DNA of 64,000 bases, from positions 352,001-416,000 of the forward strand of contig CAVXKA010000002.1 in NCBI GenBank assembly GCA_963762255.1, given 5' to 3'. This document shows, piece after piece, positions 7,790 through 24,679 of this stretch; the first letter of the stretch is position 1, and each line of letters opens with the position of its first letter. Source of the stretch: Candidatus Eiseniibacteriota bacterium (GTDB lineage: Bacteria; Eisenbacteria; RBG-16-71-46; JABDJR01). A program made the position numbers and the translations under genes. The notes under the pieces are model-generated. The model was not told the origin of the DNA, searched no databases, and saw only the letters and a list, made by a program, of their open reading frames with translations.

Positions 7790-7790
7790 T

Positions 7791-8177
7791 CTAGTGCCCC
7801 TCCCCCACGTGGCCGCGGTAGGCGTCGGCGTCCATGAGCTTGGCCACTTCGGCGGGATCGGCGACCTCGAGCTTGATCATCCAGCCGTCGACGTACGGAG
7901 ACTTGTTGACCTGCTCCGGCTTGTCGGCCAGGGCGGCGTTCACTTCGATCACCTTTCCCCCCACCGGGGCGAAGAGATCGCTCACCGTCTTCACCGCTTC
8001 GATGGTGCCGAAGCTCGCGCCCTGCGCGACCTCGGAACCCACCTGCGGCAACTCGATGAACACGATGTCCCCCAGTTCGCCCTGGGCGTAGTCGGTGATC
8101 CCCACCACCGCGGTCTTCCCAGTCACCCGCACCCACTCGTGATCCTCGGTGTACTTCAGTTCCTTGGGCGTTTCCAT
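7791..8177 (-). CDS. gcvH: Glycine cleavage system H protein
   Basis: HEW, GITDYAQ..LGDIVF, lipoyl-Lys motif EAVKTVS. Confidence 0.96.
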   Translation of the reverse strand: METPKELKYTEDHEWVRVTGKTAVVGITDYAQGELGDIVFIELPQVGSEVAQGASFGTIEAVKTVSDLFAPVGGKVIEVNAALADKPEQVNKSPYVDGWMIKLEVADPAEVAKLMDADAYRGHVGEGH

Positions 8178-8214
8178 GTCGTCCTCCCGGCCGCGGCCGG
8201 ATGCTCGTCCACCC

Positions 8215-9339
8215 TCACTTCACGGGCGCCTTGCGGCTCCCCTTCGTATAAAACGGAAACCGCGCCACCGCCGCCGGCTCTACCCGGCCGCGGATGTCCA
8301 CGCCGACCACTTGCCCCGGCTCGGCGTGCTTCACCTGCACGTACCCCATGCCGAGACCCTGTTCCAGCGAGGGCGCGAAGGTCCCACTGGTCACTTGCCC
8401 GATCGGTGCTCCCGCGTCCACCAGCGGGTACCCCTTGCGCGGGATGCACCGAGGGCTCTGCGGCACCAGACCGACCAGGCGGCGGCTCACGCCGCGATCC
8501 TTCTGCTTCACCAGCGCCTCGCGGCCGATGAAGCTCTCCTTGTTGAGCTTCACCGTCCACGACAGCCCCGCCTCCAGCGGCGTGGTGAAGTCGTCGATAT
8601 CGTTTCCATAGAGGCAGTAGCCCATCTCGAATCGCAGGGTGTCGCGCGCGGCGAGGCCGATGGGGACGATGCCGACGCCCTTTCCCTCCTCCATCAGGCG
8701 ATCCCAGAGATCGGCGGCCCAGCGCGCGGGCACGTAGAGTTCGAAACCGTCCTCACCGGTGTAGCCGGTGCGGGAGATGAGGACTTCGATCCCGCACACC
8801 TCGCCCCACTGCGCCGTGTAGGTCCCCATCGGATCGAGCGCTGTCTCCGTAAGGCGCTGAAGGAACGGTTGGGTCCCCGGGCCCTGCACCGCGAGCAACG
8901 CGGTGTCGTCAGACTCGTTGCGGAACTTCACGCCGGCGGGAAGATGCGCCTGCACCCAGGCTTCATCCTTGTCGATGTTGGCTCCGTTCACCACGAGCAG
9001 CACCGAGTCTTCCAGGCGGTAGACGATGAGATCGTCCACGATGCCGCCGTCCTCCCGGCACATCGGGGAGTAGACCGCCTGCCCCACCGGAATGTCGGCG
9101 ATCTTGTTGGTGACGAGACGGTCGGCCGCCTCGAGCGCACGCGCTCCGGTGAGCCGGAACTCTCCCATGTGGGAGAGGTCGAATATGCCGATGCCCTTGC
9201 GCACGGCCTCGTGCTCCGCAATCTGTCCGGAGTACTGGAGGGGCATCAAGTAGCCCGCGAAGGGAACGATCTTCGCCGCCAGGGCGAGGTGTTGATCGTA
9301 CAGGGGGGTCTTTTTCGCTTCGGTCTCTGCCGTCGCCAT
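8215..9339 (-). CDS. gcvT: Aminomethyltransferase (glycine cleavage T protein)
   Basis: TPLY..H, FDLSHMG, RTGYTGEDGFE, RDTLRFE. ATG at 9339 with GGAG RBS. Confidence 0.96.
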   Translation of the reverse strand: MATAETEAKKTPLYDQHLALAAKIVPFAGYLMPLQYSGQIAEHEAVRKGIGIFDLSHMGEFRLTGARALEAADRLVTNKIADIPVGQAVYSPMCREDGGIVDDLIVYRLEDSVLLVVNGANIDKDEAWVQAHLPAGVKFRNESDDTALLAVQGPGTQPFLQRLTETALDPMGTYTAQWGEVCGIEVLISRTGYTGEDGFELYVPARWAADLWDRLMEEGKGVGIVPIGLAARDTLRFEMGYCLYGNDIDDFTTPLEAGLSWTVKLNKESFIGREALVKQKDRGVSRRLVGLVPQSPRCIPRKGYPLVDAGAPIGQVTSGTFAPSLEQGLGMGYVQVKHAEPGQVVGVDIRGRVEPAAVARFPFYTKGSRKAPVK

Positions 9340-9453
9340 GGATGCTCCATTGACCGCGAGGCCGTCGGAGCGAGGCAGAAGCTCCTCAGATCCTGCAGTT
9401 CCGTGTATCACGCGTTGTTCTTGGGGGCGGGCTCTTTGGACGAAAACCGACGC

Positions 9454-9462
9454 ATGGTATCA
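9454..9462 (-). promoter_or_regulatory. Candidate extended -10 promoter for the gcv operon
   Basis: Minus strand TG-A-TACCAT about 115 bp upstream of gcvT. Confidence 0.4.
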
Positions 9463-9479
9463 CAGGGGTCCGAGGGTGA

Positions 9480-9595
9480 GTAGCAGTCGGGGAGCCGCTT
9501 CCGCGGCTCCCCGATGCAGTCGAACATGAACCCCCCGCGCTTTGGGGGGTAGTTATCGGGGAGCCGCTTCCGCGGCTCCCCGATGCTATCGAACA
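9480..9595. repeat. Tandem pair of 47-bp REP-like palindromic repeats
   Basis: GTAG-nnn-TCGGGGAGCCGC-TTCC-GCGGCTCCCCGA-TGCnnTCGAACA at 9480 and 9549 (period 69). Confidence 0.85.
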
Positions 9596-9627
9596 GAGCG
9601 GGCGTCGCGTCACCGCGCGACGCGTGC

Positions 9628-11280
9628 TTATCCGCGCTTTTTGCGCGATGCCTTTCGCACAGCGCGCGGTGCGGGCACGGTCGCTGCCGGCTTCGCTGCA
9701 CCGACGTTGCTGGCGGGCAGGGAGCGCAGCGAAGTCCGCGGCCCAGGCTTCGGTCCCTGGCCCGCGGGCTTCTTCCAACGGGTCAGGAACTCGGCGAGGA
9801 GCCGCACTCCGGCCCCGGTGCCGCCCAGCCCCATGATCGGACCCGGCTTCTCGTTCCAGGCCGTCCCCGCGATATCGAGATGAGCCCAGCGGTAGCCGTT
9901 GGTGAAGGCGCCCAGGAATGCCGCCGCAGTGATCGCGCCGCCGGGGCGACCGGCCGTGTTCTTGATGTCGGCGACGTCGCTCTTGACCATGTCGCGGTAT
10001 TCCGGCCAGAGAGGGAGCGGCCACGCGCGATCGCCGGAGGCCTCAGCCGCCTTGTACACCTCGTCCAGGAGCCACTCGTCGTTGGCCAGGACCCCGGACG
10101 CGGAGGAACCGAGCGCAATCACGCACGCTCCGGTGAGCGTCGCGAGATCGATCACGGCGTCCGGCTTGAACCGCTCGGCGTAGGCGAGAGCGTCGCAGAG
10201 GATGAGCCGTCCCTCGGCGTCGGTGTTCTTCACCTCGATCGTGACTCCGGCCATCGACGTCAGGATGTCGCCCGGCTTGTAGGCATCGCCATCGGGCATG
10301 TTGAACGCGGCGGGAACGATGCCGACGACCCGCAGCGGGATCTTGTTCTCGGCCACGAACCGCATGGTTCCCAGGACCGCCGCGCCGCCGCCCATGTCGA
10401 ACTTCATGAGCTCCATCGCCTCTCCCGGCTTGAGAGAGATGCCGCCGGTGTCGAAGGTGATGGCTTTCCCCACCAGGCACACCGTGCCGCGGGAGCGCGC
10501 CGGCTCGTGTTCCATGATGATGAACTTGGGCGGTGCGGCCGCGCCGCGCGCGACTCCGAGGAAGGCGCCCATGCCCAGCTTCTCGCAGTCCGCCTTCTCC
10601 AGCACCTTCACCTTGAAGCCGAACTGCCGGCCCAGACGCTTGGCGGTCTCCGCCAAATACGCGGGGGTGACTTCATTGCTGGGGCCGTTGCCGAGCTCGC
10701 GGGCCTCGTTGACCGCGTTCCCGATGCTCAGCCCAAGCGCGGCGCCCTCGCGGATCGCCTTCACCTTGGACGCCAGCTTCTCCACCACGGTCAGTTGCTC
10801 GAGCAGGAGCGGCTCCGCGCGACCGTCGCGGAAGTAGTTGTCGTAGCGGTAGAGCCCGTAGAGGAGCCCCTCGATGAGAGCCTGCGATACCTCGCGCGCG
10901 GGCTTGCCCGACTCGCCGCCATGCAGCACGGTGGCCGCCCGCTTCACCTTGAGCTTGCGGAGCACGCCGGCGAGGGTCCCGCCGAGCCGGCGAATCCCCT
11001 CGAGATCGAGCGCGTCCGCCTTGCCCAACCCCATCACCACCACGCGCTCCGGGACGCCCCGTCCCGAGACCGCGGGATAGAGAACCATGGCCTCCCCCGC
11101 CGATCCCTTGAAGTCGCCGGACGCGAGGGCGCGGGCGATGACTCCGCCCGCCGCGGCGTCCACCGCCGCGGTGGCCCCCGTCGGGTTCTTCGCCCCTTCG
11201 TAGAGGTTCACCACGACCACGGGACCACCGACATGCGCGATGTCCCCCTGCTCCACGCTCAGCTTGAACTTAACTTCCAT
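9628..11280 (-). CDS. pepA: Leucyl aminopeptidase (M17) with basic C-terminal tail
   Basis: VGKAITFDTGG, MKFDMGG, NTDAEGRL, ATLTGA, HLDIAG. ATG at 11280 with GAGGAGG RBS. Confidence 0.95.
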   Translation of the reverse strand: MEVKFKLSVEQGDIAHVGGPVVVVNLYEGAKNPTGATAAVDAAAGGVIARALASGDFKGSAGEAMVLYPAVSGRGVPERVVVMGLGKADALDLEGIRRLGGTLAGVLRKLKVKRAATVLHGGESGKPAREVSQALIEGLLYGLYRYDNYFRDGRAEPLLLEQLTVVEKLASKVKAIREGAALGLSIGNAVNEARELGNGPSNEVTPAYLAETAKRLGRQFGFKVKVLEKADCEKLGMGAFLGVARGAAAPPKFIIMEHEPARSRGTVCLVGKAITFDTGGISLKPGEAMELMKFDMGGGAAVLGTMRFVAENKIPLRVVGIVPAAFNMPDGDAYKPGDILTSMAGVTIEVKNTDAEGRLILCDALAYAERFKPDAVIDLATLTGACVIALGSSASGVLANDEWLLDEVYKAAEASGDRAWPLPLWPEYRDMVKSDVADIKNTAGRPGGAITAAAFLGAFTNGYRWAHLDIAGTAWNEKPGPIMGLGGTGAGVRLLAEFLTRWKKPAGQGPKPGPRTSLRSLPASNVGAAKPAATVPAPRAVRKASRKKRG

Positions 11281-14164
11281 CGCCTCCTCCTCGGGGCCGG
11301 CGCCGTGCGCGCCCCTCTGTGACCTGGGTCTTCCCGCGCGGCCGTGCCGCCGAACCGAACTCCTCCGCCAACGCGCGCCCGGTGTGGGAGGCCGCGGCCT
11401 TCGCGATCTCCTCGGGCGTTCCTTGAGCCACCACGCGCCCACCGCCGTCCCCGCCTTCGGGTCCGAGGTCGATGATGTGGTCGGCCGTCTTGATCACGTC
11501 CAGGTTATGCTCGATGACCACCACCGTATTGCCTCGATCCACGAGGCGATTCAACACCGCGAGAAGCTGGCGCACATCGTGAATGTGAAGCCCGGTGGTG
11601 GGCTCGTCGAGAATGTAAAGCGTCTTTCCCGTAGCGACCTTGGCCAGCTCCGAGGAGAGCTTCATGCGCTGCGCCTCGCCTCCGGAGAGGGTCGTGGCCG
11701 GCTGGCCCAGGTGAATGTAGCCCAAACCCACCCCTTGCAACACGTCCAACCGCCGGCGCACGGTGGGGATCGCGGCCAGGAACTCCGCCGCCTCGTCCAC
11801 CGTCATTTCCAGCACGTCATGCACGGTCTTGCCCTTGAACGTGATCTCCAGGGTTTCGCGATTGTACCGTCTCCCGTGACAACTGTCGCATCGCACGTAC
11901 ACATCGGGGAGGAAGTGCATCTCGATCTTCACGACCCCGTCCCCCGCGCAGGCTTCGCAGCGCCCCCCCTTCACGTTGAACGAGAACCGACCCGGCTTGT
12001 ACCCCCGCACCTTGGCCTCGGGAAGCTCCGCGAACAGGCTGCGGATCTCGGTGAAAATTCCGGTGTACGTCGCGGGATTGGAGCGCGGCGTGCGCCCGAT
12101 CGGGGATTGATCGATCTCCACTACCTTGTCGAGGTGCTGGAGCCCTTCGAGGCGCAGGTGGCGCCCCGCGGGCTCGGAGCCGGAGTGGAAGTGCCGCGCC
12201 GTCGCACGGAACAGGATGTCATTTACAAGCGTGCTCTTGCCCGAGCCGCTCACCCCGGTCACGCAGGTGAACACGCCGAGGGGAAAGTCCACGTCGATCT
12301 TCTTGAGGTTGTTGGCGGCGGCTTCGCGCACCACCAGTGACTTGCCATGCCCCGAGCGCCGTGCGGCGGGAAGCGGGATGGCGTCCCGTCGCGAGAGATA
12401 CCGGCCGGTGAGCGAGGTCGGGTGCGTCTCGATTTCGGCGGGAGTGCCTTCGGCGACCACTTCGCCCCCGAGCTTCCCCGCCCCGGGACCGAGATCCACG
12501 ATCCAGTCCGCCGCGCGCATGGTGTCGAGGTCATGCTCGACCACGAGCACCGTGTTTCCCAGATCCCGCATGGCGAGCAGGGTGCGCAGCAGCCGCTGGT
12601 TGTCGCGATGGTGGAGCCCGATCGAGGGCTCGTCGAGAACATAGAGCACTCCCATGAGGCGCGAGCCGACCTGGGTGGCGAGGCGGATGCGCTGGGCCTC
12701 GCCGCCGGAGAGCGTCGACGCGTTGCGGTCCAGCGTCAGGTACTCGAGCCCCACGTCGGCCATGAACCGCAGGCGCTGGCGGATCTCCTTGAGCACCTGC
12801 ACGCCGATCTTCGCCTCGCGCTCGGTGAGCTGGAGCGTGTCCACCCACGCGATCGCATCCTGGACCGCGAGCCGCACCACGTCGTGGATGGAGCGCTCGT
12901 GCACGCGAACGGCCAGGGTCTCCGGCTTGAGGCGTGCGCCGCCGCATGCGCGGCAATCGGTGGAGGCCATGTAGGCCTGGACCTGTTCGCGAACGAGTTC
13001 GCTCGTGGACTCGCGGTAGCGGCGCATGAGACCGGGGATGACCCCGCGCCACTCCTTCTTGTACTTCATGCTGAAGCGCGAGTCCTGATACTGGACGTCG
13101 ATCTCCTTGCCGCCCGCGCCCTGGAGCACCACCTGCCGGACTTTGGCCGGCAGCTTCTTCCACGGCGCGTCGAGGTCGATCCGATATGCCTTGGCCAGGG
13201 CCTTGATCTGCGAACCGAGCCAGAGAGAATCGACGCGGGTACCGTACGGGGCGATCGCGCCCTCGTTGATCGAGAGATCCGGGTTGGGGACGACGCGCTC
13301 GGGATCGATCTCCATCCGCGTCCCCAGACCGTCGCACTCGGGGCACGCGCCGTAGGGAGAGTTGAAGGAGAACATGCGCGGCTCGAGATCGGGATAGGAG
13401 AGACCGCAGGCCACGCACACCGCGTGCTCGTTCAGCACGCGGTCCTCCGCGCCGTCCACGACGACGGTGACCAGTCCACCCGAGAGCCCGAGGGCGGTCT
13501 CGATGGAGTCGGTGAGGCGCTGGCGTTGAGCGGCGTCGGGCTTGAGCCGGTCCACGACGATCTCGATGGTGTGCTTGCGCTTCTTGTCGAGCGCGGGGGC
13601 GGACTCGATCTCGACCCACGCGCCGTCGATGCGCGCGCGCAAGAACCCCTCGCGCTTCAGCTCGGCCAGCTCGGCGCGATACTCCCCTTTCCGTCCCCTC
13701 AGGATGGGAGCGAGGACTTGCGTGCGTTTGCCGGCGGCGGAGGCGAGTACGCCGTCGGCCATCTCTTGGACGGTCTGCCGGCTGATGGGGCGGTCGCACC
13801 GCGTGCAAAACTGCTTGCCCACCCGGGCGAAGAGCAGCCGGAGGTAGTCGTAGATTTCGGTGGCGGTGGCCACGGTGGAGCGGGGGTTGCGGGCGGCGGT
13901 GCGCTGCTCGATGGAGATGGCGGGCGAGAGGCCGTCGATGTGGTCGACGTCCGGCTTCTCCATCTGGCCGAGGAACTGCCGAGCGTAGGCGGAAAGGCTC
14001 TCCACGTAGCGCCGTTGCCCCTCGGCGTAGATGGTGTCGAACGCCAGGCTCGACTTGCCCGAGCCGCTCACCCCGGTGATTACCACCAGCCGGTCGCGGG
14101 GAATCTCCAGGGAGATGTTCTTGAGGTTGTGCTCGCGGGCTCCGCGAATGGAGATGGTCGCCAT
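11270..14164 (-). CDS. uvrA: Excinuclease ABC subunit A
   Basis: GAREHNLKN, two GVSGSGKS Walker A motifs, two LSGGEAQR signatures, zinc-finger Cys pairs. Start MATISIRG at 14164. Confidence 0.97.
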
Positions 14165-14204
14165 GGTTCTGCCTGGGGAAGGGGTCGGGAATGGAGAGCG
14201 ATAG

Positions 14205-14233
14205 AGGCTAGGACGCGTCCGGAGCGGTGTCAA
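14205..14233 (-). promoter_or_regulatory. sigma70 promoter for uvrA-pepA
   Basis: Minus strand TTGACA-N17-TAGCCT. Confidence 0.65.
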
Positions 14234-14250
14234 GGAAGCCCAACTGCTCG

Positions 14251-14279
14251 TTGACGCTCGCCATCTCGGGGCCTACCAT
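14251..14279 (+). promoter_or_regulatory. sigma70 promoter for the dikinase-like/maeB-like operon
   Basis: TTGACG-N17-TACCAT, back-to-back with the uvrA promoter. Confidence 0.65.
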
Positions 14280-14326
14280 CGGCTCCGTACCGCCGGAGCG
14301 GATGCATCCCGCCACGGGGTTCGAGG

Positions 14327-17300
14327 GTGACTGAGAAACCGGGGCGGGAAACCGTCCCTTTGCACGCGCATCCGGGCACGGAACAGGCCGCCGTCGCCGG
14401 GCTCGTCGCATCGATCGTCGCGCAGTGCGCGGCGGCGATGGGCCGGCCCGAGCGCGTCGTCGAGGATTGCCGACGTCTCCGCGCGCTCCTCCCCGCTTCA
14501 CCCGCGGACTGGCCTCTCCCCGAGTTGGAGCCGCTCTTCCCTCTGCCGGCGGCCAAGTCCACCGAGTTCGCGGCGCCGGTCTGCGCGCTGATCGAGGAAG
14601 CGGCGGCCGCGATCGCCTCGCCGTGGCCCTTCTTCGACGCGCTTCTCGCCGCGCGCGACCCTGACCTCGCCGGCCGCGCCCTCGATCTCCTCGCCCGCCG
14701 CGCTCGAGACGCATCGCTGGCGATAGAACCCGAGCGGCTGCGCCGCCTTGCCGCGCGCGTCGAGGCCGAAGGCTCGCCGCTCGTCACGCCCTGCGCGCTC
14801 GACGCGCTGGGCGCGATCCTCGCCGCCGCCCGGCCCGCGCCGGCGCACGTCGCGGACGCCGCGCAAACGTTCTTCTTCGAAGCCGCCGACCCTCTCGTTC
14901 GCCGGCTTGCCGCGCGCGTGCTGGATCGATCGGGGGAACCCGCGCCGCGGGAGACCGCGATCCGTGCGCTGGGCGCCGAGGCGTTCGCGTTCCTCCACCC
15001 GTACCTCGAGTTCACGCGGGCCTCCCATCGCGATCTCCTGGAGCTCGCCTCGTCGCCGGGCGTGGTTCCCTCGCTCGCATCGCTCCAACGCGCGGAAGCG
15101 CTCGCCGGCGAGAGCGTGCTTCGCGAGGTGATCGCCCGGCTGGGCTGGCCGCACCTCAACCTGGGTCTCGAGGTCGATGCGCAGGTCGCGATCGCGCTCC
15201 CCGGCACCTTCCCGTTCCTGGTCGCCCGCGAGGAGGCGCCCTACTTCGCGGCGCTCGCGGGGGTCGAGCCGGTTCGGGAGTTGACGCTCTTCATCGCGCA
15301 CGGTGGGACGACCGGCGCCGAGGGCGCGACGGAGGATTCGGGAGGTACCGTCGCGCGCTTCCGCGGGTACAACCTCGCTCATGCCGAGGCGCTCGCCGAC
15401 ATCCTCGATCTCGCCCCGCTCACCCGCGAGAAGAGCGTGCGCATCCTCGACCGAATGGACCGCATCGTGGAGGACTTCACCGCCCTCTTCGCCCGTCACT
15501 CCGACGAGTGCGCGCGGCTCCCCGATGCGTATCGCGAACTGCGCGGCCGCGTGACGGCGGAGCTCGATCGCGACGACGGCGATACGACGCTGTCCACCGA
15601 GCTGACCCGCCTCGTGCAGATGTTCGAGGATCCGCGCTCGCTCGACGAGGTGCGCACGCTCCACGGTCTCAAGCGATACCTGCACCAGCGGGGTTTGCGA
15701 CTGGGCTTCCGATTGGTGGAGACCTCCCGGGCGACCAATCGCAGGGTCCACATCCTCCTTGCCGACCCGGACGGGCTGCGCCGCGAGTGTCCCGAGATTC
15801 GATACGTGGATTTCGAGCCGCCGGTCTCCGAGGGAGAATCGCAGATTCCGTTTCCGGTGCGCGTGGCGGTAGAAGGGTTCTCGCGACAGCTCATGCGCGG
15901 TCAGAGCGCGTTTCCGGGGCTTAGCGTGTTCTGCTACGGAAACGAGGTGCACTACTACCTCGCCTTCGGCAATCACCCGGCGTTCCTGCGCATCGACTAC
16001 TCCCCGCCTCTCCAGGGAGGCATGATCGATCTCGAGTACTTCGGGGTCAGCAAGTCCGAGCTCAATCAGCATCCCGATCCGGAACTCACCGCGCTGCGGG
16101 CCTGCTTTCGCCGCCTCGACTTCGATGTGCAGGTGGAGAGCACCCACGTGCGGGCGCGCTACGACAAGGAGCGGGCCCTCGACCTGGGGGCGATCTGCGA
16201 GAAGGCGGGCGCGCTCTTCCGCCTCGCCCCTCACCTCATGGACGTGGATTGGGCGGTGGGAGGACTGCGTCTGTCGGCGGACGCGCGCGGCAAGGTCGCC
16301 GAGGCCTGGGCCGACTTCCTGGCTCGCTGGGGAAGCCTGCCCAGCGATCGTTTCCTGACCGGCGACCGCCAAGGGATTCTGGTGGGCTTGGTGCGCGCGC
16401 CGGGGGGCCCGCGGGAGCTGGTGTGGAGCGGCGAAGGCGCGTACCAGGACCGCTTCTCGTCCCCTTTCCCCCCCGAGGCCTGGGCGCGGTGGCAGGAAGC
16501 GATCCGCGGGTTGGGGTTGGAGAGGCCGGTATCGGTCCCTGATGTCGATCGGCGCTACGCGCAACTCCGGTTCGAGCACGAGTTCCTGACCCCGCTGCGC
16601 GCGGCGAAGGCGCGCGGGCAGATCGTCGCCGAGGAGGGTACCCATCGCCGCGCCGCGGCCGACCGTTTCCGCCTCGAGCACGAGGCCGAGATCTTCGCTC
16701 GCCTTCTCGCCGGGCCCTCGGCGGCGCTCACCGGCGCGATCGCGCTGGCGCGCCTGGTGAGCCCCCTCGAGCGCACCCTGCGCTTCCAGACCACCGGCGT
16801 GGTCAACGGCCATGAGGTGCAGCGCGCGCGGCTTCCGCTGCGAGGGGAGGACATCGGCCTGTTCGTGCTGCGCGGACCGCGCGGCATCATCCGCCTCGCG
16901 CTCTACTCGCGCGACGGCGTCCTCTGGAGCCGCCGCGAGGACGCCGGCTCACCCTGGACCTTCAGCGGAGAAACCGATGCCGCGGTCCTCGCCGCGCTCC
17001 TTCGCGCGAACGGCTATCCGCCGCTCCCGTTCGATGGAAGCGCCGTGGACGCGGAAGACACCGAGGATCTCCGCCGGCGCCTGCGCCGGCTGGACCCGGC
17101 CCCGCGCCTGCGAAGCCTCTCCGGCGAGCGCGTGGTCACCGGTCTTCGCGCCTCTCCCGGACGCGCGGTCGGACCCGCGCGGCTTGGGATGGGCGGCCGC
17201 TCCCCCCGCGATTTCGCGGGCGCCATCCTCGTCACCCCGCGCGTGGGCCCCGAGGACAACGCGTTCCTCTTCAGCGCCGCCGCCATCGTCTCGACCGGAG

Positions 17301-19420
17301 GCGGCATCCTGAGCCATGCCGGACTCCTCGCCATCCAATTCCGCAAGCCGGCCCTCATCGTTCCCGGCCGCTGGTCGGTGGAAGCGGACGGCGCCCCGAC
17401 CCTGAGTCTTCCCTGTCTCGAGTACGGCGAGGAGGAGCGCGAGGTCGAGGGCTCGCGCGTCGTCCTGCGCACTGACCTTCAGGAGCGGGAGCACTCCCTG
17501 CGCGAAGGCGATCTGGTCGCGGTGGACGCGGCTGCGGGAACACTGCGCGTGTTGGGGCGCGGCCCCGAGGCGCTGGCGCTCCACGACGGGCTCTGCCGGC
17601 TCGAGGACGCCCGCCGTCGGCTGGCCGGCGATCGTCCCGACGAGGACATCCTCGTCCTGCGCGGCCATCGTCTCAAGGCGCGTCATCAGCTCGCCAAGCT
17701 CGTCGCCCGCTTCACCGATCCCGCACTGGCGCGACATACCGTGGACGAACTCCTTCTGCGCGAACCGCGTCTCGACGATCCCGATCGCGTACCGGAGACC
17801 GCGGCGCTTCTCGCCGCGCTCCTGGCGAACCCGGTGGTGGGGGCGCGCGCGCGCGAGCATGCGGCGGCGCTGACCGAGGATCTCGACCGGCGGCGGCAAG
17901 CCCTGGTGTCGCGGTCGGCGTTCCGCATCCCGACCTCGCGCTCCGCCTACGAGGTACTGCAGCTTCGCCTCGACGCGCTCCGTCTCAGCGAGGCCTTCCG
18001 CGCCGCGCGCGAACTGCTGCCGTCGGCCGAGAGTGCAGGTGTCGGCTCCGGTGCCGACGCAGCCGACCTCGATGCCCTCGCGCTCGAACAGCTCCGCCGG
18101 CTCCTCGCCGGGCGTCTGCGCACCCTGCGCGATCGTTCCTTCGACGACGCGGGACGACCCCGGCGGCGCCATCTCCTGCGGGAGGCCGAGCGGCTCGCCA
18201 AGGTCTGCGGCGGGTCGGAAGGCACCCGGCGCCGGCTGCACGCCGCACGGGCCGGACTCGCGCAGGAGGACGACGCCCGCGTTCGCTCGCTGTCCACCCG
18301 ACGAGTCCTCGGCGCGCCGGACGGCGGATTGGAGCTGCTCCCCCTGGTGGGAGGCAAGGCGGCCAACCTCGCCGAGATCGAGCGCCTGGCCGGATCGCAC
18401 GTCGTGCCGCCGTGGTTCGCGGTCACGCATCACGCTTTCGAGGAGATGCTCGCGTCACCGGTCGCGGTGCGGGCCGCCGGCCTGGAGAGCCTGATCGCCG
18501 GCGCGCACACGCTTCACGAGGCGATCGAGTCGATTCTGGGCCATAGCGAGCTTGGAATAGCACAGCGCGCTGCGGCTATTCGTTTGCTATGGGATCAGAG
18601 CCGCCTGCCCGAGGATCTCGCCGCCGAGATCCTGGAGGCGTGCGCGAAGATCCTCGCCGTCCCCGGCGACGATCAACCTCTCCCCGGTTTCGTGGCCATT
18701 CGCTCCTCCTCCCGCGAAGAGGACGCCGAGGCTGCCGCCCGCGCCGGCGAGTTCGACACGTTTCTCTTCGTGCGCGGGGAAGCCGCGGTGCTGGACCATC
18801 TCAAGCGCGCGTGGAGCGGCCTATGGTCGGAACGGGCCATCCACAACCGGGCCGTCCTCGAGAGTTCCACCGAAAAGGCCGGCGGCGGCATCGTCGTCCA
18901 ACGCATGATCTTTTCGCGGGTCGCCGGCGTCGTGCAGACGGTCAACGTGGCCGAGAACGAACCCCGCGAGTTCGTCATCAACGCCGGCCTCGGTCTCGGG
19001 GAAGGGGTGGTCTCCGGGGCGGTGGCCGCGGACCAGATCGTGGTGGCGCGCGAGGGCGATCTCGAGAAGGGGCCGCTCCGTTTCCGCTACGCCACCGCCG
19101 ACAAGACCGAGCGCGTGGTCCTGAATCGCGAGGCGGGTCTGGGGACACGGCGCGAGGAAACCCTCTACCACCAGCGCCTGCGCCCGGCGCTAGAGTACGT
19201 GGAGCTCTGCGAGCTGGTGCGCGCGGCGGCCCGCCTCGAGGAGGCCTACGGCTATCCCCTCGACCTGGAATTCGGGATCGAGGGAACGCGGCTCTGGATC
19301 CTCCAGGCGCGACCCGTTGCCGTCTTTCACGCTCTCTTGCGGGAGACTCTCGACCGTCGGCCCCTGGCCCCCCGGTCCCGATCACGGATTCCCCGAGCCC
19401 ATGAGGAGATCGCGTCATGA
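14327..19420 (+). CDS. Giant PEP-utiliser/PPDK-family phosphotransferase: unknown N-terminal region, His-swivel domain, C-terminal ATP-grasp
   Basis: GLRASPGRAVG...STGGGILSHAGLLA (His997). From about aa 1342: GGKAANL, AIRSS..EDA...AG.FDT, VQRMI, GLGE.VVSG, DLEFG, LWILQARP. Confidence 0.85.
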   Translation: MTEKPGRETVPLHAHPGTEQAAVAGLVASIVAQCAAAMGRPERVVEDCRRLRALLPASPADWPLPELEPLFPLPAAKSTEFAAPVCALIEEAAAAIASPWPFFDALLAARDPDLAGRALDLLARRARDASLAIEPERLRRLAARVEAEGSPLVTPCALDALGAILAAARPAPAHVADAAQTFFFEAADPLVRRLAARVLDRSGEPAPRETAIRALGAEAFAFLHPYLEFTRASHRDLLELASSPGVVPSLASLQRAEALAGESVLREVIARLGWPHLNLGLEVDAQVAIALPGTFPFLVAREEAPYFAALAGVEPVRELTLFIAHGGTTGAEGATEDSGGTVARFRGYNLAHAEALADILDLAPLTREKSVRILDRMDRIVEDFTALFARHSDECARLPDAYRELRGRVTAELDRDDGDTTLSTELTRLVQMFEDPRSLDEVRTLHGLKRYLHQRGLRLGFRLVETSRATNRRVHILLADPDGLRRECPEIRYVDFEPPVSEGESQIPFPVRVAVEGFSRQLMRGQSAFPGLSVFCYGNEVHYYLAFGNHPAFLRIDYSPPLQGGMIDLEYFGVSKSELNQHPDPELTALRACFRRLDFDVQVESTHVRARYDKERALDLGAICEKAGALFRLAPHLMDVDWAVGGLRLSADARGKVAEAWADFLARWGSLPSDRFLTGDRQGILVGLVRAPGGPRELVWSGEGAYQDRFSSPFPPEAWARWQEAIRGLGLERPVSVPDVDRRYAQLRFEHEFLTPLRAAKARGQIVAEEGTHRRAAADRFRLEHEAEIFARLLAGPSAALTGAIALARLVSPLERTLRFQTTGVVNGHEVQRARLPLRGEDIGLFVLRGPRGIIRLALYSRDGVLWSRREDAGSPWTFSGETDAAVLAALLRANGYPPLPFDGSAVDAEDTEDLRRRLRRLDPAPRLRSLSGERVVTGLRASPGRAVGPARLGMGGRSPRDFAGAILVTPRVGPEDNAFLFSAAAIVSTGGGILSHAGLLAIQFRKPALIVPGRWSVEADGAPTLSLPCLEYGEEEREVEGSRVVLRTDLQEREHSLREGDLVAVDAAAGTLRVLGRGPEALALHDGLCRLEDARRRLAGDRPDEDILVLRGHRLKARHQLAKLVARFTDPALARHTVDELLLREPRLDDPDRVPETAALLAALLANPVVGARAREHAAALTEDLDRRRQALVSRSAFRIPTSRSAYEVLQLRLDALRLSEAFRAARELLPSAESAGVGSGADAADLDALALEQLRRLLAGRLRTLRDRSFDDAGRPRRRHLLREAERLAKVCGGSEGTRRRLHAARAGLAQEDDARVRSLSTRRVLGAPDGGLELLPLVGGKAANLAEIERLAGSHVVPPWFAVTHHAFEEMLASPVAVRAAGLESLIAGAHTLHEAIESILGHSELGIAQRAAAIRLLWDQSRLPEDLAAEILEACAKILAVPGDDQPLPGFVAIRSSSREEDAEAAARAGEFDTFLFVRGEAAVLDHLKRAWSGLWSERAIHNRAVLESSTEKAGGGIVVQRMIFSRVAGVVQTVNVAENEPREFVINAGLGLGEGVVSGAVAADQIVVAREGDLEKGPLRFRYATADKTERVVLNREAGLGTRREETLYHQRLRPALEYVELCELVRAAARLEEAYGYPLDLEFGIEGTRLWILQARPVAVFHALLRETLDRRPLAPRSRSRIPRAHEEIAS

Positions 19421-21681
19421 TCCGCCGAGAGGAATCGCTCAAGTACCACTCGCTCGACCGCCCGGGAAAGATCGAGGTGCGGGCCACCAAGCCCTGCCTC
19501 ACTCCGCGCGAGATGCGCCAGGCCTACCTCCCGGGCGCCTCGTACCCGGCCGAGGAGATCCACCGCGATGTCTCCTCTGTCTTCAAGTACACGGCTCGCG
19601 GCAACCTCGTCGGTGTGATCACCAACGGCTCGGCCGTGCCCGGCCTCGGAGCTGTGGGGCCCTATGCGGCCAAGCCGATGCAGGAAGGGATGGCGGTCCT
19701 CTTCAAGCGCCTCGCCGACATCGACGTGTTCGACCTCGAACTCGACACCGCCGACCCCGACCGGTTCATCGAGACGGTGAAGCTCCTCGAGCCGACCTTC
19801 GGCGGGATCAACCTGAAGGACATTCGCGCGCCGGAGGGGCTCTACATCCACGACCGGCTCACGGAACTCCTGGAGATCCCGGTCTTCCACGAGAACCTCT
19901 ACGGGACCGCGGTGGTGGCGGCGGCGGCGCTGCTGAACGCGCTCGATCTGGTGGAGAAGCCGATCGACGCGGTGGACGTCGTGATCTCCGGCGCGGGAAC
20001 GGTCGGCACCGGGTGCGCCCGCCTTCTGGTCGCTCTCGGCGTGCGCCCGGAGCGCCTGCGCGTGTACGACGTGGCCGGGCTGATTCGCCCGGACCGCGGC
20101 GATCTTCACGACTATCAGCGCCCCTTCGCGCGCGAAGACGCACCGCGGGATCTCGCCGAGGGTCTGCGCGGCGCCGACGTGTTTGTGGGCGCCTCCGCCG
20201 GCGGCGTGCTCACTCCCGACATGGTCCGGGGCATGGGGCGCTATCCCATCGTCCTCGCCCTGGCTACCCCCGAGCCGGAGATCACCTACGACGCCGCGCG
20301 CGCCAGCCGCCGCGACGTGGTGGCGGCCACCGCCGTCGCAGGCTCCCCCAACGCGGTGCTGGATGTGCTGAGTTTCCCCTACATCTTCCGCGGGGCTCTT
20401 GACGTGCAGGCCCGCCGCATCACGCAGGGAATGCTGGTGGCGGCGGCGCGCGCGCTGGCCGATCTCGCGCGCGAGGACGTGGTCGAGGAGGTGGAACGCG
20501 CCTACGGAGCCGGCCGGTTCAGCTTCGGCCCGGAGTACCTGCTCCCCAAAGCGATCGACCCGCGCATCCTGGTATGGGAATCCTCCGCCGTGGCCCAGCA
20601 GGCGATCCTGGACGGGGTGGCGAGCCGGCCGACGGCCGCCGAACCGCACCGCGATTCCCTGGCCGCGCGGCTCGGAACCGGCCGTGAGACGCTGCGCAGC
20701 ATGATCCTCGCCGCGCGCCGAAGCAAGCTGCGCGCGGTCTTCTCGGAGGGGACCAACGAAACAATTCTGCGCGCGTGCAGCATCCTCGCCGACGAAGGAA
20801 TCGCGAGCCCGATTCTTCTCGGACGCGAGGACGAGGTGCGGGCGGCCATCGAGGAACTCCGCCTGGATCTCCCCGGCGTGCCGATCATCGACCCCGCCCG
20901 GAGCCCGCGCCTGGAGACGTACACCGAATCCTACTTCGCTCTGCGCGGCCGGCGCGGCGTCATGCGCGCGGCCGCTACGCAGCGCCTGCTCAGGCGCGAG
21001 TACTACGCCGCGATGATGCTCCACTGCGGCGACGCCGACCTCATGGTCTCCGGCGTCTCCGCCCACTATGCGGAATCGCTGCGCACGATCCTCGAGGTGA
21101 TCGGGACCGCGCCCGGCATCCGTCGGGTCTCCGGGCACTACCTCGTGCTGTTGCCCAAACGCATGTTCGTGCTCGCCGATTGCGCGGTCAATATCAACCC
21201 GGACGCCGAGGAGCTCGCCGAGATCGCGCTTCTCGCCGCCGACCTCGCGCGGTCGCTCGGAGAAAAGCCGCGTGTAGCCATGCTTTCCTTCTCGAACTTC
21301 GGGAGCGTGGATCATCCGGTCACGCGCAAGGTGCGCCGCGCCGCGGAGATCGTGAAGCAGCGCGCTCCGGATCTGGAGATCGACGGGGAGATGCAGCTCC
21401 CCATCGCGCTGGACGGGGAGATGCGCCGCCGGTACTTCCCCTTCTCCTCCCTGGGGGACGACGCCAACGTGCTGGTCTTCCCGGGACTCGAGCCGGGGAA
21501 CCTGGCCCTCCACCTGCTGCAACACCTGGGGGGCGCGGTGCCGGTGGGGCCGATCCTCCTCGGCACGCGCTTCCCCGCACACGTGCTGCAGTTCGGCTAC
21601 TCCGTGGAAGAGGTGGTCAACCTCACCACGGTGGCGGCGGTGCAGGCGGCGGCGGGGCGACGCTCTACTGAAGCATCGTGA
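19417..21681 (+). CDS. MaeB-like protein (malic enzyme + PTA domains) with degenerate active site
   Basis: YH....PGKIE, AYLPG, YTARGNLV, EPTFGGINL, FPYIFRGALDV, C-terminal PTA domain (LSFSNFGS, DGEMQ). Catalytic K and metal ligands are substituted. Confidence 0.9.
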   Translation: MIRREESLKYHSLDRPGKIEVRATKPCLTPREMRQAYLPGASYPAEEIHRDVSSVFKYTARGNLVGVITNGSAVPGLGAVGPYAAKPMQEGMAVLFKRLADIDVFDLELDTADPDRFIETVKLLEPTFGGINLKDIRAPEGLYIHDRLTELLEIPVFHENLYGTAVVAAAALLNALDLVEKPIDAVDVVISGAGTVGTGCARLLVALGVRPERLRVYDVAGLIRPDRGDLHDYQRPFAREDAPRDLAEGLRGADVFVGASAGGVLTPDMVRGMGRYPIVLALATPEPEITYDAARASRRDVVAATAVAGSPNAVLDVLSFPYIFRGALDVQARRITQGMLVAAARALADLAREDVVEEVERAYGAGRFSFGPEYLLPKAIDPRILVWESSAVAQQAILDGVASRPTAAEPHRDSLAARLGTGRETLRSMILAARRSKLRAVFSEGTNETILRACSILADEGIASPILLGREDEVRAAIEELRLDLPGVPIIDPARSPRLETYTESYFALRGRRGVMRAAATQRLLRREYYAAMMLHCGDADLMVSGVSAHYAESLRTILEVIGTAPGIRRVSGHYLVLLPKRMFVLADCAVNINPDAEELAEIALLAADLARSLGEKPRVAMLSFSNFGSVDHPVTRKVRRAAEIVKQRAPDLEIDGEMQLPIALDGEMRRRYFPFSSLGDDANVLVFPGLEPGNLALHLLQHLGGAVPVGPILLGTRFPAHVLQFGYSVEEVVNLTTVAAVQAAAGRRSTEAS

Positions 21682-22792
21682 GGAAGACGCCTGCCACCAT
21701 CGCCGTGCCGATCACGCCGGCCACGTTCGGTCCCATGGCGGGCATGAGGGGGTTCACCCGCCCCTCGGTCTCGTCGGACACGAGCTTCTGAACCACCCGC
21801 GCAGCCATGGGCACCGCCGACACCCCGGCGGCGCCGATGCAAGGATTGATCTTCTTCCCCTCGGGCAGCAAGAGGTTCAAGAACTTGCCGAGGAGTACGC
21901 CGCCGGCAGTGCTGAAGATGAACGCCACCGCGCCCAGGAGCAGGATGAGAATCGTCTTCACGGTGAGGAAGTTCGCCGCGTCCATGGTGGCCCCGACTGC
22001 GAGACCGAGGAACATCGTCACGATGTCGATCAACGCAGACCCGGCGGTCTTGCGTAGCCGCTCGGTCACCCCGCACTCCCGCAGGAGATTCCCGAACATG
22101 AGCATGGCCATCAGGGCGGCCGAAGACGGAACCGCCAGCGAGGCCAGCGTCCCGGTGATGATCGGGAAGAGCACCACCGCCACCTTGCTCACTTCCTTCG
22201 GCTGCGGCATGTCGATGCCCCGCTCCCGGCGCGTGGTCAGCAACCGGATCACAGGGGGCTGGATGATCGGAACCAGCGACATGTAGCTGTACGCGGCCAC
22301 GGCGATCGGCCCCAGAAGATGGGGCGCCAGGCGGGTGGCGAGATAGATCGAGGTCGGGCCGTCGGCGCCGCCGATGATGCCGATGCTCGCCCCCTCCTGC
22401 GGCGTGAACCCCAGGAGATACACCGCCCCCATGCCGGCTACGAAGACGCCTAGCTGGGCGGCCGCTCCGAGGAGGAACGTCAGGGGCTGGGCGAGCAGCG
22501 GACGAAAATCGGTCAGCGCCCCGACTCCCAGGAAGATCACGGGGGGGAGCAGATCGGTGAGGATCCCCTGCCGGTAGACGAGGTTGATGATCCCGGTGTC
22601 GTGAGAACCGAGTTCGGCGAGCGGTAAGTTGGCGATGAGGATGCCGAACCCGATCGGGATCAGCAGCAACGGTTCGTAGTCCTTGGCCACGGCCAGATAG
22701 AGCAGCACGCCGGCGACCACGTACATGATCGCGTTGCCAAGGCTCAGGTGAGCGAAGCCCGACTGGGTGACGAGCTGCTGGACGGTCTCCAT
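21665..22792 (-). CDS. oadB: Na+-translocating decarboxylase beta subunit
   Basis: YEPLLLIPIGFG, GAAAQ.G, IGIIGGADGPT, AAYSYM, GVSAVPMAAR, AMGPNVAGVIG. Confidence 0.95.
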   Translation of the reverse strand: METVQQLVTQSGFAHLSLGNAIMYVVAGVLLYLAVAKDYEPLLLIPIGFGILIANLPLAELGSHDTGIINLVYRQGILTDLLPPVIFLGVGALTDFRPLLAQPLTFLLGAAAQLGVFVAGMGAVYLLGFTPQEGASIGIIGGADGPTSIYLATRLAPHLLGPIAVAAYSYMSLVPIIQPPVIRLLTTRRERGIDMPQPKEVSKVAVVLFPIITGTLASLAVPSSAALMAMLMFGNLLRECGVTERLRKTAGSALIDIVTMFLGLAVGATMDAANFLTVKTILILLLGAVAFIFSTAGGVLLGKFLNLLLPEGKKINPCIGAAGVSAVPMAARVVQKLVSDETEGRVNPLMPAMGPNVAGVIGTAMVAGVFLTMLQ

Positions 22793-22804
22793 GAACCCGC
22801 CTCC

Positions 22805-24679
22805 CTAGGAAAGCACCAGGATCGGCTGCGTCGAATCGATCTCTTGACCGACCGCGGCGTTCACCGCCACCACAACGCCGTCGACAGGGGCGCGGATGTC
22901 GTGCTTGGCCTTCATCGCTTCGACCGCGGCCACCGTTTGCCCCTTCTTCACGTGGTCCCCCACCTTCACGGAGACCCCCACCACCTCGACGCGGCCCCCG
23001 AACGGGGAGCGCACCGCCACCGAACCGCCACCCGAAGGTGGCGCACTCGCAGGCGTGCCGGCCGCCGGGGCCGCCGCCGGCGCAGGCGCCGGGACTCCCG
23101 CCCCGAGGCCCATAGTCGCCGCCGGCTCCAGCGTGATCGTGAACACGCGCGCGCGGCCGTTCTCCTCCACCGTGCATCGAGTCTGCGTCGGGCCGGCGAC
23201 CGGCGCGGCGGGCGCCGGCGCTGGCGGCGTCGCCTGACCCTCCGTCCCCTTCTTCTTCAGGGGGACATCGATCTTCGGTTTGCCGGTCAGGAGGCGAATG
23301 CCTTCGTTCATCTCCAGCGGCATCCCCGGCACGATCGCGGAGAGAACCAGGAACACGTTCTCATCGGTGACCGGAAGGCCGCGCTCGGCAAGCGCGCTCC
23401 GAGCGGTCACGATGTGATTGGGGGCCGCCTCGAGGGGATCCCCGTCGAAGGGCGGCAACTCCAGCTCCTCCGACGCCTTTTTCACGACCATCGGGTCGGG
23501 AGGCAGCGGGGTCTTGCCGAAGTAGCCCAGCACGGCGCGCGCGTAGCCGTCCTCGATGCGCTCCCAGCGTCCGTAGAGAACGTTGTTGAACGCCTGGAGC
23601 CAGTATTGCTGGCTGCCCGGCGTGACGCTGGTCCAGGCTCCGCCGGCCTCCACGACCACCGGGAACTCGGCCAGCACCTCGCCGTACTTCTCCAGAATCC
23701 CCGCCTTCACCATCATGTGGACGTTGGGACCGATCGCGCCTCCGGGCATGGGGAAACCGACCACCCGCGCGTCGGCGGTGGTCGTGGCCGGATTGAAGGC
23801 GTAGTCCTTGAGCAGGTCGGTGAGGCACTCTTCGATCGGGTTCATGGATGCCGGGTCGATGTCGAGCGAGTAGCCGGTCCCCTTCAGGGCGTGGGCCATG
23901 GAGCGCACATCCGGCTGAACGGTGCCGCTGGCCAGCGGGCGCACAGAGAGATCGATTCCGTCAGCCCCTCCCTCGATGCCCGCCATATAGCAGGCCACCG
24001 CCATGCTCGCGGTGTCGTGGGTGTGGATCCAGAGCGGCATCTCCGGGGGCATCAGCTTGCGGACCCCCACGGCCGTCTCGTAGACCGTGCGCGGGTCGCA
24101 GGTGCCGCTCGCGTCTTTCAGGCAGAGGCTATCGATGCGCACCCCGCCGGCGAGCAAGCGCCGCGCGATGTCGATGTAGAACCCCGACGTATGGACGCGA
24201 TCCGACACGAAGGGGAGACCCATGAGGGCCACGCACGCCTGGTGGTGCATCCCCGCCTCGACGATCGGTCGCGCGGTGTTGATGAGGTTGCGCACATCGT
24301 TCATGTAGTCGAAGTTGCGGTCCCAGGTGGTCCCGTGCTTCTTCATCAGCTTGGCCTGGAGCCGCAGCGCCTCCAACGACTGCGTGGTGAGGGTGACCCC
24401 CGACACCGATCGCGTGAGGATCTGCAAGTCCGCGTCCGGCCCCACCGCATCGCGGATCGCCTGCATGTCGGCGAAGGGATCCTCCCCGAGATAGAAGTAG
24501 GGTGCCTGGTAGCGGGCGCCGCCTCCGAACTCGAAGTGGCGGATCCCGAGACGGGAGGAGAGCTTCACCGCCTCCAGGAAATCAGCCAACCGGACCTTGC
24601 CGCCGAACGCGCTTTGCAGACCGTCGCGGAAGGCCGTCATCATGACCCGGATCTGCTTGGGCTTCTCGGTGCGGATCAT
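22805..24679 (-). CDS. oadA: Oxaloacetate decarboxylase alpha / PycB-like carboxyltransferase with biotin-carrier domain
   Basis: FRDGLQS, LKDASG, HTHDT, PGG, VTPGSQ, Pro/Ala linkers, biotinylation motif EAMK. Confidence 0.85.
   Translation of the reverse strand: MIRTEKPKQIRVMMTAFRDGLQSAFGGKVRLADFLEAVKLSSRLGIRHFEFGGGARYQAPYFYLGEDPFADMQAIRDAVGPDADLQILTRSVSGVTLTTQSLEALRLQAKLMKKHGTTWDRNFDYMNDVRNLINTARPIVEAGMHHQACVALMGLPFVSDRVHTSGFYIDIARRLLAGGVRIDSLCLKDASGTCDPRTVYETAVGVRKLMPPEMPLWIHTHDTASMAVACYMAGIEGGADGIDLSVRPLASGTVQPDVRSMAHALKGTGYSLDIDPASMNPIEECLTDLLKDYAFNPATTTADARVVGFPMPGGAIGPNVHMMVKAGILEKYGEVLAEFPVVVEAGGAWTSVTPGSQQYWLQAFNNVLYGRWERIEDGYARAVLGYFGKTPLPPDPMVVKKASEELELPPFDGDPLEAAPNHIVTARSALAERGLPVTDENVFLVLSAIVPGMPLEMNEGIRLLTGKPKIDVPLKKKGTEGQATPPAPAPAAPVAGPTQTRCTVEENGRARVFTITLEPAATMGLGAGVPAPAPAAAPAAGTPASAPPSGGGSVAVRSPFGGRVEVVGVSVKVGDHVKKGQTVAAVEAMKAKHDIRAPVDGVVVAVNAAVGQEIDSTQPILVLS

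Follow-up and report, generated by a model that had tools for sequence, protein, structure and literature searches.

The stretch analysed here (hereafter the window) comprises 64,000 nt of Candidatus Eiseniibacteriota bacterium assembly GCA_963762255.1, contig CAVXKA010000002.1, positions 352,001 to 416,000 of the forward strand. At 14327..19420 it carries a gene for a His-swivel dikinase of an undescribed family, followed on the same strand by a gene for a protein derived from the malic enzyme MaeB, which we refer to as the partner. Together they constitute a real and widespread two-gene system that is apparently undescribed. The features of the pair, in window coordinates, are listed below.

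14327..19420, + strand: dikinase gene, His-swivel dikinase of an undescribed family; GTG start, 1697 amino acids (aa)
14381..15142, + strand: HEAT/ARM-like helical solenoid, aa 19-272; AlphaFold secondary structure, with generic helical-repeat matches only
15347..15724, + strand: four-helix bundle, aa 341-466, whose last helix carries TLHGLKRYLHQ; AlphaFold model and conservation
15851..16261, + strand: alpha/beta domain, aa 509-645, with H550, R555, H582, D613, K614 and D641; models and conservation
16718..17008, + strand: second alpha/beta domain, aa 798-894; AlphaFold models
17105..17554, + strand: phosphohistidine swivel, aa 927-1076, with the His997 codon at 17315-17317; PF00391 and a structural match to pyruvate, phosphate dikinase (PPDK)
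17567..18301, + strand: helical linker between swivel and ATP-grasp, aa 1081-1325; family hydrophobic moment and composition
18341..19324, + strand: ATP-grasp of the phosphoenolpyruvate (PEP) synthase type, aa 1339-1666; PF01326, E 4e-58
19417..21681, + strand: MaeB-like partner gene, 754 aa; its start overlaps the dikinase stop (ATGA)
19417..20670, + strand: malic-enzyme part of the partner; catalytic residues replaced, NADP contacts kept
20704..21639, + strand: phosphotransacetylase (PTA)-like domain of the partner; most Bdellovibrio-type acetyl-CoA contacts kept

A dikinase family with the His domain ahead of the ATP-grasp

At E ≤ 1, Pfam detects two families only in the dikinase, PF00391 at aa 965-1070 and PF01326 at aa 1339-1666. 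Three motifs mark the chain, TLHGLKRYLHQ starting at aa 444, GGILSHAG at aa 992 (containing His997) and GGKAANL at aa 1342. PEP-utilizers_C, the pyruvate-binding TIM barrel, was not found by Pfam at the same threshold, and a (beta/alpha)8 pattern is likewise absent from the AlphaFold model of aa 1-1100. In all 72 GTDB loci with both domains, the ATP-grasp comes after the His domain. A preliminary description of this DNA had claimed exactly this order, which recalls that of glucan, water dikinases (GWDs), along with the lack of a pyruvate barrel, and both claims are borne out by the Pfam mapping, the loci and the model.

That description had also taken the open reading frame (ORF) as intact as against a misassembled chimera, which agrees with a uniform GC content at third codon positions (0.76-0.90 in each 100-codon bin, in a window free of N). 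The dikinase represents a real family and not a chimera, because, of 8000 candidates scored in a search with aa 280-940, 471 were homologues at E ≤ 0.001 and because the same architecture is shared by hundreds of independent sequences. Both Pfam domains are present in 115 of the 120 listed homologues (the window protein counted), which are mostly 1600-1730 aa long and many of which are named ‘pyruvate, water dikinase’ in their sources. A scan of GTDB confirmed 98 of 125 candidate stretches as dikinase, spread over 12 phyla, and 80 loci were retained, all titled as metagenome-assembled genomes or as uncultured. These fall into Acidobacteriota (29), Thermodesulfobacteriota (11), Bacteroidota (9), Eisenbacteria (8), Calditrichota (4), Ignavibacteriota (4), Planctomycetota (3) and five other phyla (7 together), with five unassigned.

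The resemblance to known dikinases is concentrated in the two Pfam domains. NCBIfam gives 21 matches, all far under their own cut-offs (the best at 196.7 bits vs 598), and their best stretches fall in the swivel and the ATP-grasp, those of the PpsA, Rph and PigC models mainly in the ATP-grasp. Sequence matches in the PDB at E<0.001 are likewise restricted to these two domains; the ATP-grasp is matched best by PEP synthases, the swivel by PPDKs. Specifically, the top ATP-grasp matches are 8a8e (PDB) and PRK06464 (NCBIfam), both PEP synthase, and the swivel resembles the PPDK models PRK05878 and TIGR01828 and superimposes on maize PPDK 1vbg with Z 14.1 and a root-mean-square deviation (rmsd) of 3.0 over 120 aligned residues. 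The rifampin phosphotransferase (RPH) structure 5hv1 aligns to the dikinase model over 105 residues (Z 12.9), which is the size of the swivel.

We counted residues over 189 full-length members (1550-1800 aa), with shorter and longer ones excluded. His997 is kept in 188/189, and K1344, R1459, S1460, S1461, E1465 and Q1525 of the ATP-grasp are each present in 189/189; given this near-invariance, the phosphotransfer machinery looks intact. Position 995, two residues before His997, is Leu in all 189 members; in PEP synthase, PPDK and enzyme I the equivalent position holds a regulatory Thr (PMC12167813). The AlphaFold models cover aa 1-1100 and with them only the first residues of the linker (aa 1081-1325), which looks helical. 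In the linker the helical moment exceeds the strand moment in 0.74 of windows across the family, and its content of beta-formers is the least among five segments compared. Within the C-lobe of the ATP-grasp, aa 1613-1627 (about 19163-19207) form a motif, YHQRLRPALEYVEL, that is highly conserved in the family and is a possible docking surface.

A putative acceptor site in the N-terminal region

The AlphaFold model of aa 1-1100, built from 46 sequences (pLDDT 84, pTM 0.81), resolves this part of the chain into a helical solenoid, a beta insertion, a four-helix bundle, an alpha/beta domain, a second alpha/beta domain and the swivel, and a second model of aa 505-900 from 73 sequences reached pLDDT 91.6. 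The solenoid is the more variable part of the protein and could be a scaffold or a partner-binding surface. The stretch aa 350-650, by comparison, is among the best conserved, with 10-18 near-invariant positions per 50 aa: H446, R450, H453, H550, H582 and D613 are found in 189/189 dikinases, and E540, R555, R611, K614 and D641 in 188/189. Because these invariant His, Asp, Lys and Arg residues gather in the last bundle helix and the aa 509-645 domain, this is probably where the phospho-acceptor site lies.

Neither alpha/beta domain has an evident counterpart among solved structures. The closest structural neighbour of aa 509-645 found by VIA-align, the MotA double-wing domain (Z 7.5, rmsd 3.5, 99 aligned), falls short of a clear match, and aa 798-894 weakly match the NIS synthetase N-terminal domain (Z 5.6, rmsd 3.6, 78 aligned). 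When aa 505-900 were compared by VIA-align with 48,161 chains, 13 reached Z ≥ 5 and none Z ≥ 8, and Foldseek found no match at E ≤ 0.001 with either model. The fold-search listings for the unassigned part, in which aa 646-900 are barely covered, contain no GWD, RIF-binding-domain or barrel match. On these models, the acceptor domain appears to have no clear solved relative. An internal repeat of the two alpha/beta domains had no BLAST support (E 5.7), and when the core domain of 79 members was scanned with Pfam, no family occurred in more than five of them.

The segment RTLHGLK resembles a histidine phosphotransfer (HPt) motif. HPt identity of the bundle was rejected on two points: the match to CheA P1 (Z 8.2, rmsd 3.6, 103 aligned, 4% identity) is in the range of generic four-helix bundles, and the position of H446 is His in only 4 of ten distant relatives.

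Distant and giant relatives

These relatives come from a profile of aa 424-650 (79 sequences), which gave 149 matches among 1.84 billion representatives. The weak tail of matches consists of proteins of 767-6226 aa in which the order is core domain, swivel and, where present, ATP-grasp; no proteins of about 850 aa with the ATP-grasp first were found in it. In the ten distant relatives H453, K614 and D641 are kept 10/10 and H550 and D613 9/10, a conservation that is partly by construction, as the ten were hand-picked from this tail. An Arg present in 9/10 of them has no counterpart at aa 586 of the main family, from which we conclude that the dikinase pocket has probably been remodelled.

Five of the relatives are giants (P0257, P0259, P0261, P0263 and P0264, 2986-6226 aa) with the core domain, swivel and ATP-grasp embedded in the same order. 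FHA domains were seen in two of the giants scanned, and P0264 weakly matches a Ser/Thr phosphatase (E about 0.02). Giant proteins with PPDK_N domains, possibly the same ones, have been noted in bioRxiv 10.1101/2023.11.21.568195. At the other extreme, P0245 (1464 aa) is a degenerate member that lacks the His550 equivalent and whose ATP-grasp is matched in pieces, while its architecture is still recognisable.

The preliminary description likened the segment at aa 444 to the C-terminal domain of deltaproteobacterial PpsA-like proteins, a possible kinship with which the tail motifs look compatible. Searches for such a domain by plasmid tblastn, in the Atlas and by hidden Markov model over the locus ORFs gave no usable member, and a search of shorter proteins with a distant relative found it in 0 of 1089 candidates. 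For the domain of a distant relative, the Atlas returned a cluster in which 78% of members carry PF27448 Rph_4th (score 0.84), which we treat as a lead only.

A pseudo-malic enzyme as a fixed partner

The partner gene, overlooked in the preliminary description, is the strongest functional clue at this locus. It lies downstream on the same strand in 69/80 dikinase loci, and 67 of these 69 partners start at most about 215 bp from the estimated end of the dikinase, with one more at 341 bp and one at 1400 bp; in the 11 loci without it, the contig breaks off within the dikinase gene or at most 160 bp from it. The sole locus with a gap of about 1.4 kb has an ORF of about 440 aa between the two genes, hydrophobic and transporter-like (L057:13879-15279).

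The window partner matches Bdellovibrio MaeB (PDB 6ZNG) over its full length at 663 bits, through malic domain, hook and PTA-like domain, and it matches ordinary malic-enzyme families in Pfam and NCBIfam, with PRK12861 at 689 bits vs a cut-off of 1178. In MaeB, Y52, K107, E149 and D174 act in catalysis, D233, R242 and K250 bind NADP, twelve residues contact acetyl-CoA, and a divalent cation is required (PMC7902834). In the window partner the catalytic Lys is Met92, the metal-binding Glu is Lys134, the DD pair is Glu159-Asn160 and the Asn is Thr284; Tyr37 is kept, as are the NADP contacts GxGxxG, Asp218 and Arg227.

The same holds across the clade, as judged from 60 near-full-length sequences among 70 partners. 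K107 is replaced in 60/60 by Met, Ile, Val, Leu, Ala or Phe; E149 is never Glu and is Lys in 54/60; D174 is Glu in 54/60 (Asp in 1), D175 is Asn in 58/60 and N300 is Thr in 55/60, and the DD pair (D174-D175) occurs in 0/60, whereas 5/5 control MaeBs retain K, E, D, D and N. Kept are Y52 (58/60), D150 (57/60), D233 (57/60), R242 (60/60) and the GxGxxG glycines. The replacement residues are themselves conserved, with K134 and E159 each in 54/60, N160 in 58/60, D316 in 59/60 and P75 in 60/60. Because K107, E149 and the DD pair are replaced, the partner is, as far as its catalytic residues tell, not a malic enzyme, yet it is under clear selection.

In the PTA-like domain, nine of the twelve acetyl-CoA contacts are kept, each in 51-60 of the 60 partners (R510, R513, Y551, R556, N592, Q660, N695, P712 and Q725). 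At what we take to be the position of the Ser-Arg-Gly...Asp motif of phosphotransacetylases, Gln-Tyr-Gly stands where Ser-Arg-Gly is expected (Q725 in 54/60, Tyr in 56/60), and Pta models score under their cut-offs. The partner thus keeps predicted sites for NADP and for acetyl-CoA, the latter of the Bdellovibrio type described in PMC12704298. In a FastTree phylogeny of 31 partners and a small control set of five, a branch with support 100 and a stem length of 0.59 separates the partners from the controls.

Alignment distances of dikinase and partner correlate (r 0.765 over 57 pairs, reached in 0/2000 permutations), as expected from co-inheritance and not as evidence of contact. A complex prediction of dikinase aa 98-668, partner aa 1-418 and Mn, one domain pairing, scored 0.01 with a mark of 0.32 and is evidence neither way. 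Candidate fusions of the two proteins were rejected: P0265 (2410 aa) and P0241 contain both Pfam sets at out-of-frame junctions and are frameshift artefacts, P0138 and P0244 look like misjoins, and the long MaeB ORFs in L006, L023, L035, L061 and L075 result from extension of the open frame and match no dikinase.

Genomic neighbourhood

Two further features flank the pair in the window.

14251..14279, + strand: sigma-70-like promoter match, TTGACG-17-TACCAT; consensus match only, in the gap divergent from uvrA
21665..24679, - strand: oxaloacetate-decarboxylase-like beta (21665-22792) and alpha/biotin (22805-24679) genes; Pfam, convergent with the pair

The sigma-70-like site lies 48-76 bp 5′ of the dikinase start and is the only one in 13900-22000, vs 0.2 ± 0.6 in shuffles. 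Upstream, 4960-14233 (-) is an ordinary run of uvrA, leucyl aminopeptidase and glycine cleavage T, H, P1 and P2 genes, and L001, the closest relative, likewise has uvrA upstream. Two ORFs with coding-like third-position GC content, 43374-45425 (+, 683 aa) and 25007-25969 (-, 320 aa), have no Pfam match, and Rfam has no match anywhere in the window.

Counting the window with the 80 GTDB loci, oxaloacetate-decarboxylase-like genes occur near the pair in 7/81 loci (the window and six others) in several arrangements, a recurrent but optional association; the window alpha subunit has a weak HMGL-like match (E 8.8e-09) and could represent a divergent subtype. A second, larger malic enzyme of about 575 aa lies directly upstream and co-directional in 3/81 loci, giving a row of malic enzyme, dikinase and pseudo-MaeB (malic enzymes at L011:725-2506, L016:7303-9021 and L073:1491-3221). 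In two Eisenbacteria loci a 2-oxoacid dehydrogenase E1 gene is divergent from the dikinase (L046:7324-8673 and L049:7473-8822, both -), and a fumarase-family lyase lies downstream in L046. Beyond the pair, the neighbours are mixed: the 121 flanking genes from the 80 loci include no recurring glycogen cluster, component of the phosphotransferase system (PTS) or aromatic pathway.

Comparison with known systems

Although built as a His-swivel dikinase, the protein does not appear from its sequence to belong to any of the PpsA, PPDK, RPH/PigC or GWD families. With PpsA it shares an ATP-grasp and a His swivel and probably the conversion of ATP to AMP and phosphate; it differs in placing His before the ATP-grasp, in lacking the barrel and the regulatory Thr, in its roughly 900 aa of other N-terminal domains and in its fixed partner, and PpsA models reach 183-197 bits vs cut-offs of 598-740. 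Its swivel is closest to that of PPDK, whereas its ATP-grasp scores best with PEP synthases and the order and acceptor domain differ; PPDK models give 39-46 bits vs cut-offs of 456-843, with the swivel region as best stretch. Like RPH, HpeHI/CreHI/phenylphosphate synthase and PigC/RedH, it has a non-barrel acceptor domain before the swivel and no regulatory Thr. In those systems, however, the ATP-grasp is N-terminal or on a separate chain, and no MaeB-like partner is seen in the parts of the sources consulted; the best stretch of the RPH and PigC models ends at about profile position 300-317 of 864-883, with no sequence match to the acceptor domain.

GWD1 and PWD likewise end in a His domain followed by a nucleotide-binding domain (PMC5575247). 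The likeness to GWDs appears to be one of domain order only: the dikinase has a solenoid in place of a match to the carbohydrate-binding modules CBM45 or CBM20 (a CBM45 model in the Pfam set being unconfirmed) and has no glucan context. By the account in PMC12892837, no GWD or PWD structure has been solved. The partner, for its part, resembles MaeB over its whole length and in its NADP and most acetyl-CoA contacts, and departs from it in the clade-wide replacement of K107, E149, D174, D175 and N300 and in following the dikinase wherever the contig shows its position. The titles and abstract openings that were searched, with supplementary surveys (for example the RPH phylogeny) and most subscription journals outside their scope, contain no description of the dikinase family or of a dikinase paired with a pseudo-MaeB.

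Discussion

We favour, with a rough probability of 0.45, the interpretation that the dikinase is a water dikinase whose substrate is a C3/C4 carboxylate, with pyruvate as the top guess, and that it is gated by the partner as a pseudo-malic-enzyme sensor. The two proteins would form one functional unit. In enzymes of this kind ATP gives phosphohistidine, AMP and phosphate, and the swivel then moves to a separate acceptor site (PMC4844700); here, to judge from the intact family motifs, the C-terminal ATP-grasp would move the beta-phosphate of ATP to His997 with release of AMP and phosphate, and the swivel would carry it to the new acceptor site formed by the last bundle helix and aa 509-645. The acceptor would most likely be a small C3/C4 carboxylate of the PEP-pyruvate-oxaloacetate node; conversion of pyruvate to PEP is our best single guess for the reaction, a tentative one that we would expect to fail more often than to hold. 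The partner most likely senses acetyl-CoA and NADP(H) and so controls the dikinase, a role that we propose for it in place of the absent switch by phosphorylation of the regulatory Thr. The unit could have originated from an ancestral operon of malic enzyme and PEP synthase for gluconeogenesis, a route known from Haloferax (PMC7746861). In keeping with the favoured interpretation as a whole, the recurring oxaloacetate decarboxylase and larger malic enzyme neighbours make or use pyruvate, and the ATP-grasp appears nearest to those of PEP synthases.

Several observations weigh against a pyruvate dikinase gated by a sensor. Known pyruvate dikinases bind pyruvate through their C-terminal domain, and RPH, which is without it, spares pyruvate (PMC4844700). 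T614, Y721 and K722 of the acetyl-CoA pocket are changed in the partners, and the conserved replacements at the old active site fit a re-tooled active site as well as a sensor. The FHA-bearing giant relatives of 3-6 kaa hint at signalling uses. Most flanking genes are unrelated to C3/C4 metabolism, and the oxaloacetate decarboxylase and malic enzyme neighbours are a minority that comes partly from related genomes.

The giants bear on an alternative that we regard as unlikely, if a serious contender, in which the dikinase is a protein kinase or part of a phosphorelay, passing phosphate from His997 either to a second His, H453 or H550, or on to a protein that may be the partner, in signalling on acetyl-CoA and NADP(H). 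In the unassigned region conservation reaches deepest at H453 and H550, a helical solenoid is typical of protein binding, two giant relatives have the FHA domains, and the swivel of PTS enzyme I performs protein-to-protein transfer (PMC4844700); on the other hand, no HPr, EIIA, response regulator or transcription factor recurs among the flanking genes, the spending of two phosphoanhydride bonds suits the synthesis of a high-energy metabolite, and the His of the HPt-like motif is poorly kept in the distant relatives. If the partner were instead a re-tooled enzyme, Lys134 would replace the metal and the partner would oxidise malate or hold oxaloacetate or enolpyruvate, with phospho-His997 trapping PEP. 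The new residue set K134, E159, N160 and D316 at the old active site, where Tyr37 and the NADP site are kept, the single clade with its long stem relative to the five controls, the remodelled dikinase pocket and genes that overlap or nearly touch all speak for such a coupled complex. It has to do, though, without the Lys that serves as general acid/base and without most of the acidic residues of the Mg site, as PMC7902834 names them for an enzyme that needs a divalent cation; the dikinase also retains a strongly conserved pocket of its own, and distant relatives whose neighbours were not seen have the same core domain. We think this decidedly unlikely, and give equally long odds to its fullest form, a new complex turning malate or oxaloacetate straight into PEP, with a new acceptor fold and acetyl-CoA control.

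The lack of a TIM barrel and of the regulatory Thr is shared with RPH, HpeHI and PigC (PMC12167813), and the Rph_4th cluster in the Atlas, lead though it is, points the same way, to a dikinase for a non-central compound (a phenol, an aromatic or a natural product) with the partner as accessory regulator. The Rph, PigC and RedH models, however, reach 110-161 bits vs cut-offs of 999-1700, best over the ATP-grasp, no catabolic or biosynthetic cluster recurs among the flanking genes, and a partner derived from MaeB points to central metabolism, making this very unlikely in our estimation. The preliminary description had left room for a glycan acceptor, and a bacterial counterpart of GWD that phosphorylates glycogen or another glycan could cite the C-terminal position of the nucleotide-binding domain in GWD (PMC5575247) and the phosphohistidine through which GWD works (PMC12892837). 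The idea fares badly: no carbohydrate-binding or GWD-specific family matches in Pfam at E ≤ 1, a solenoid occupies the N-terminus where GWDs have CBM45 or CBM20 (PMC5575247), glycan genes are scattered singletons among the flanking genes and the fixed partner derives from a malic enzyme, so that we consider it highly improbable. Lastly, an ordinary PEP synthase with a standard pyruvate domain, suggested by the names of many homologues and the PpsA-like ATP-grasp, and a misassembled chimera are both refuted by the Pfam results (no PEP-utilizers_C), the AlphaFold model without a barrel pattern, the architecture common to the independent homologues and the gene order across loci, which leaves them a negligible chance.

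The known acceptors of His-swivel dikinases make a short list of pyruvate, glucans, rifamycins, phenols and pyrroles. The family described here adds to this group a domain order new in bacteria and an acceptor domain without a clear solved relative, and it ties a pseudo-malic enzyme to a dikinase in every locus where the link is visible. If our favoured interpretation is true, it would provide a PEP-forming enzyme without a TIM barrel, regulated by an enzyme turned sensor; if the coupled complex is true, a dozen phyla, mostly uncultured, would have a new way of crossing the PEP-pyruvate-oxaloacetate node. Because many members are named pyruvate, water dikinase and ordinary malic-enzyme families are matched by the partner, this node may be wrongly represented in metabolic models of genomes from Acidobacteriota, Desulfobacterota, Eisenbacteria, Calditrichota and Bacteroidota. 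The two genes make a self-contained unit, which points to a step in central carbon metabolism that is undescribed and probably under metabolite control.

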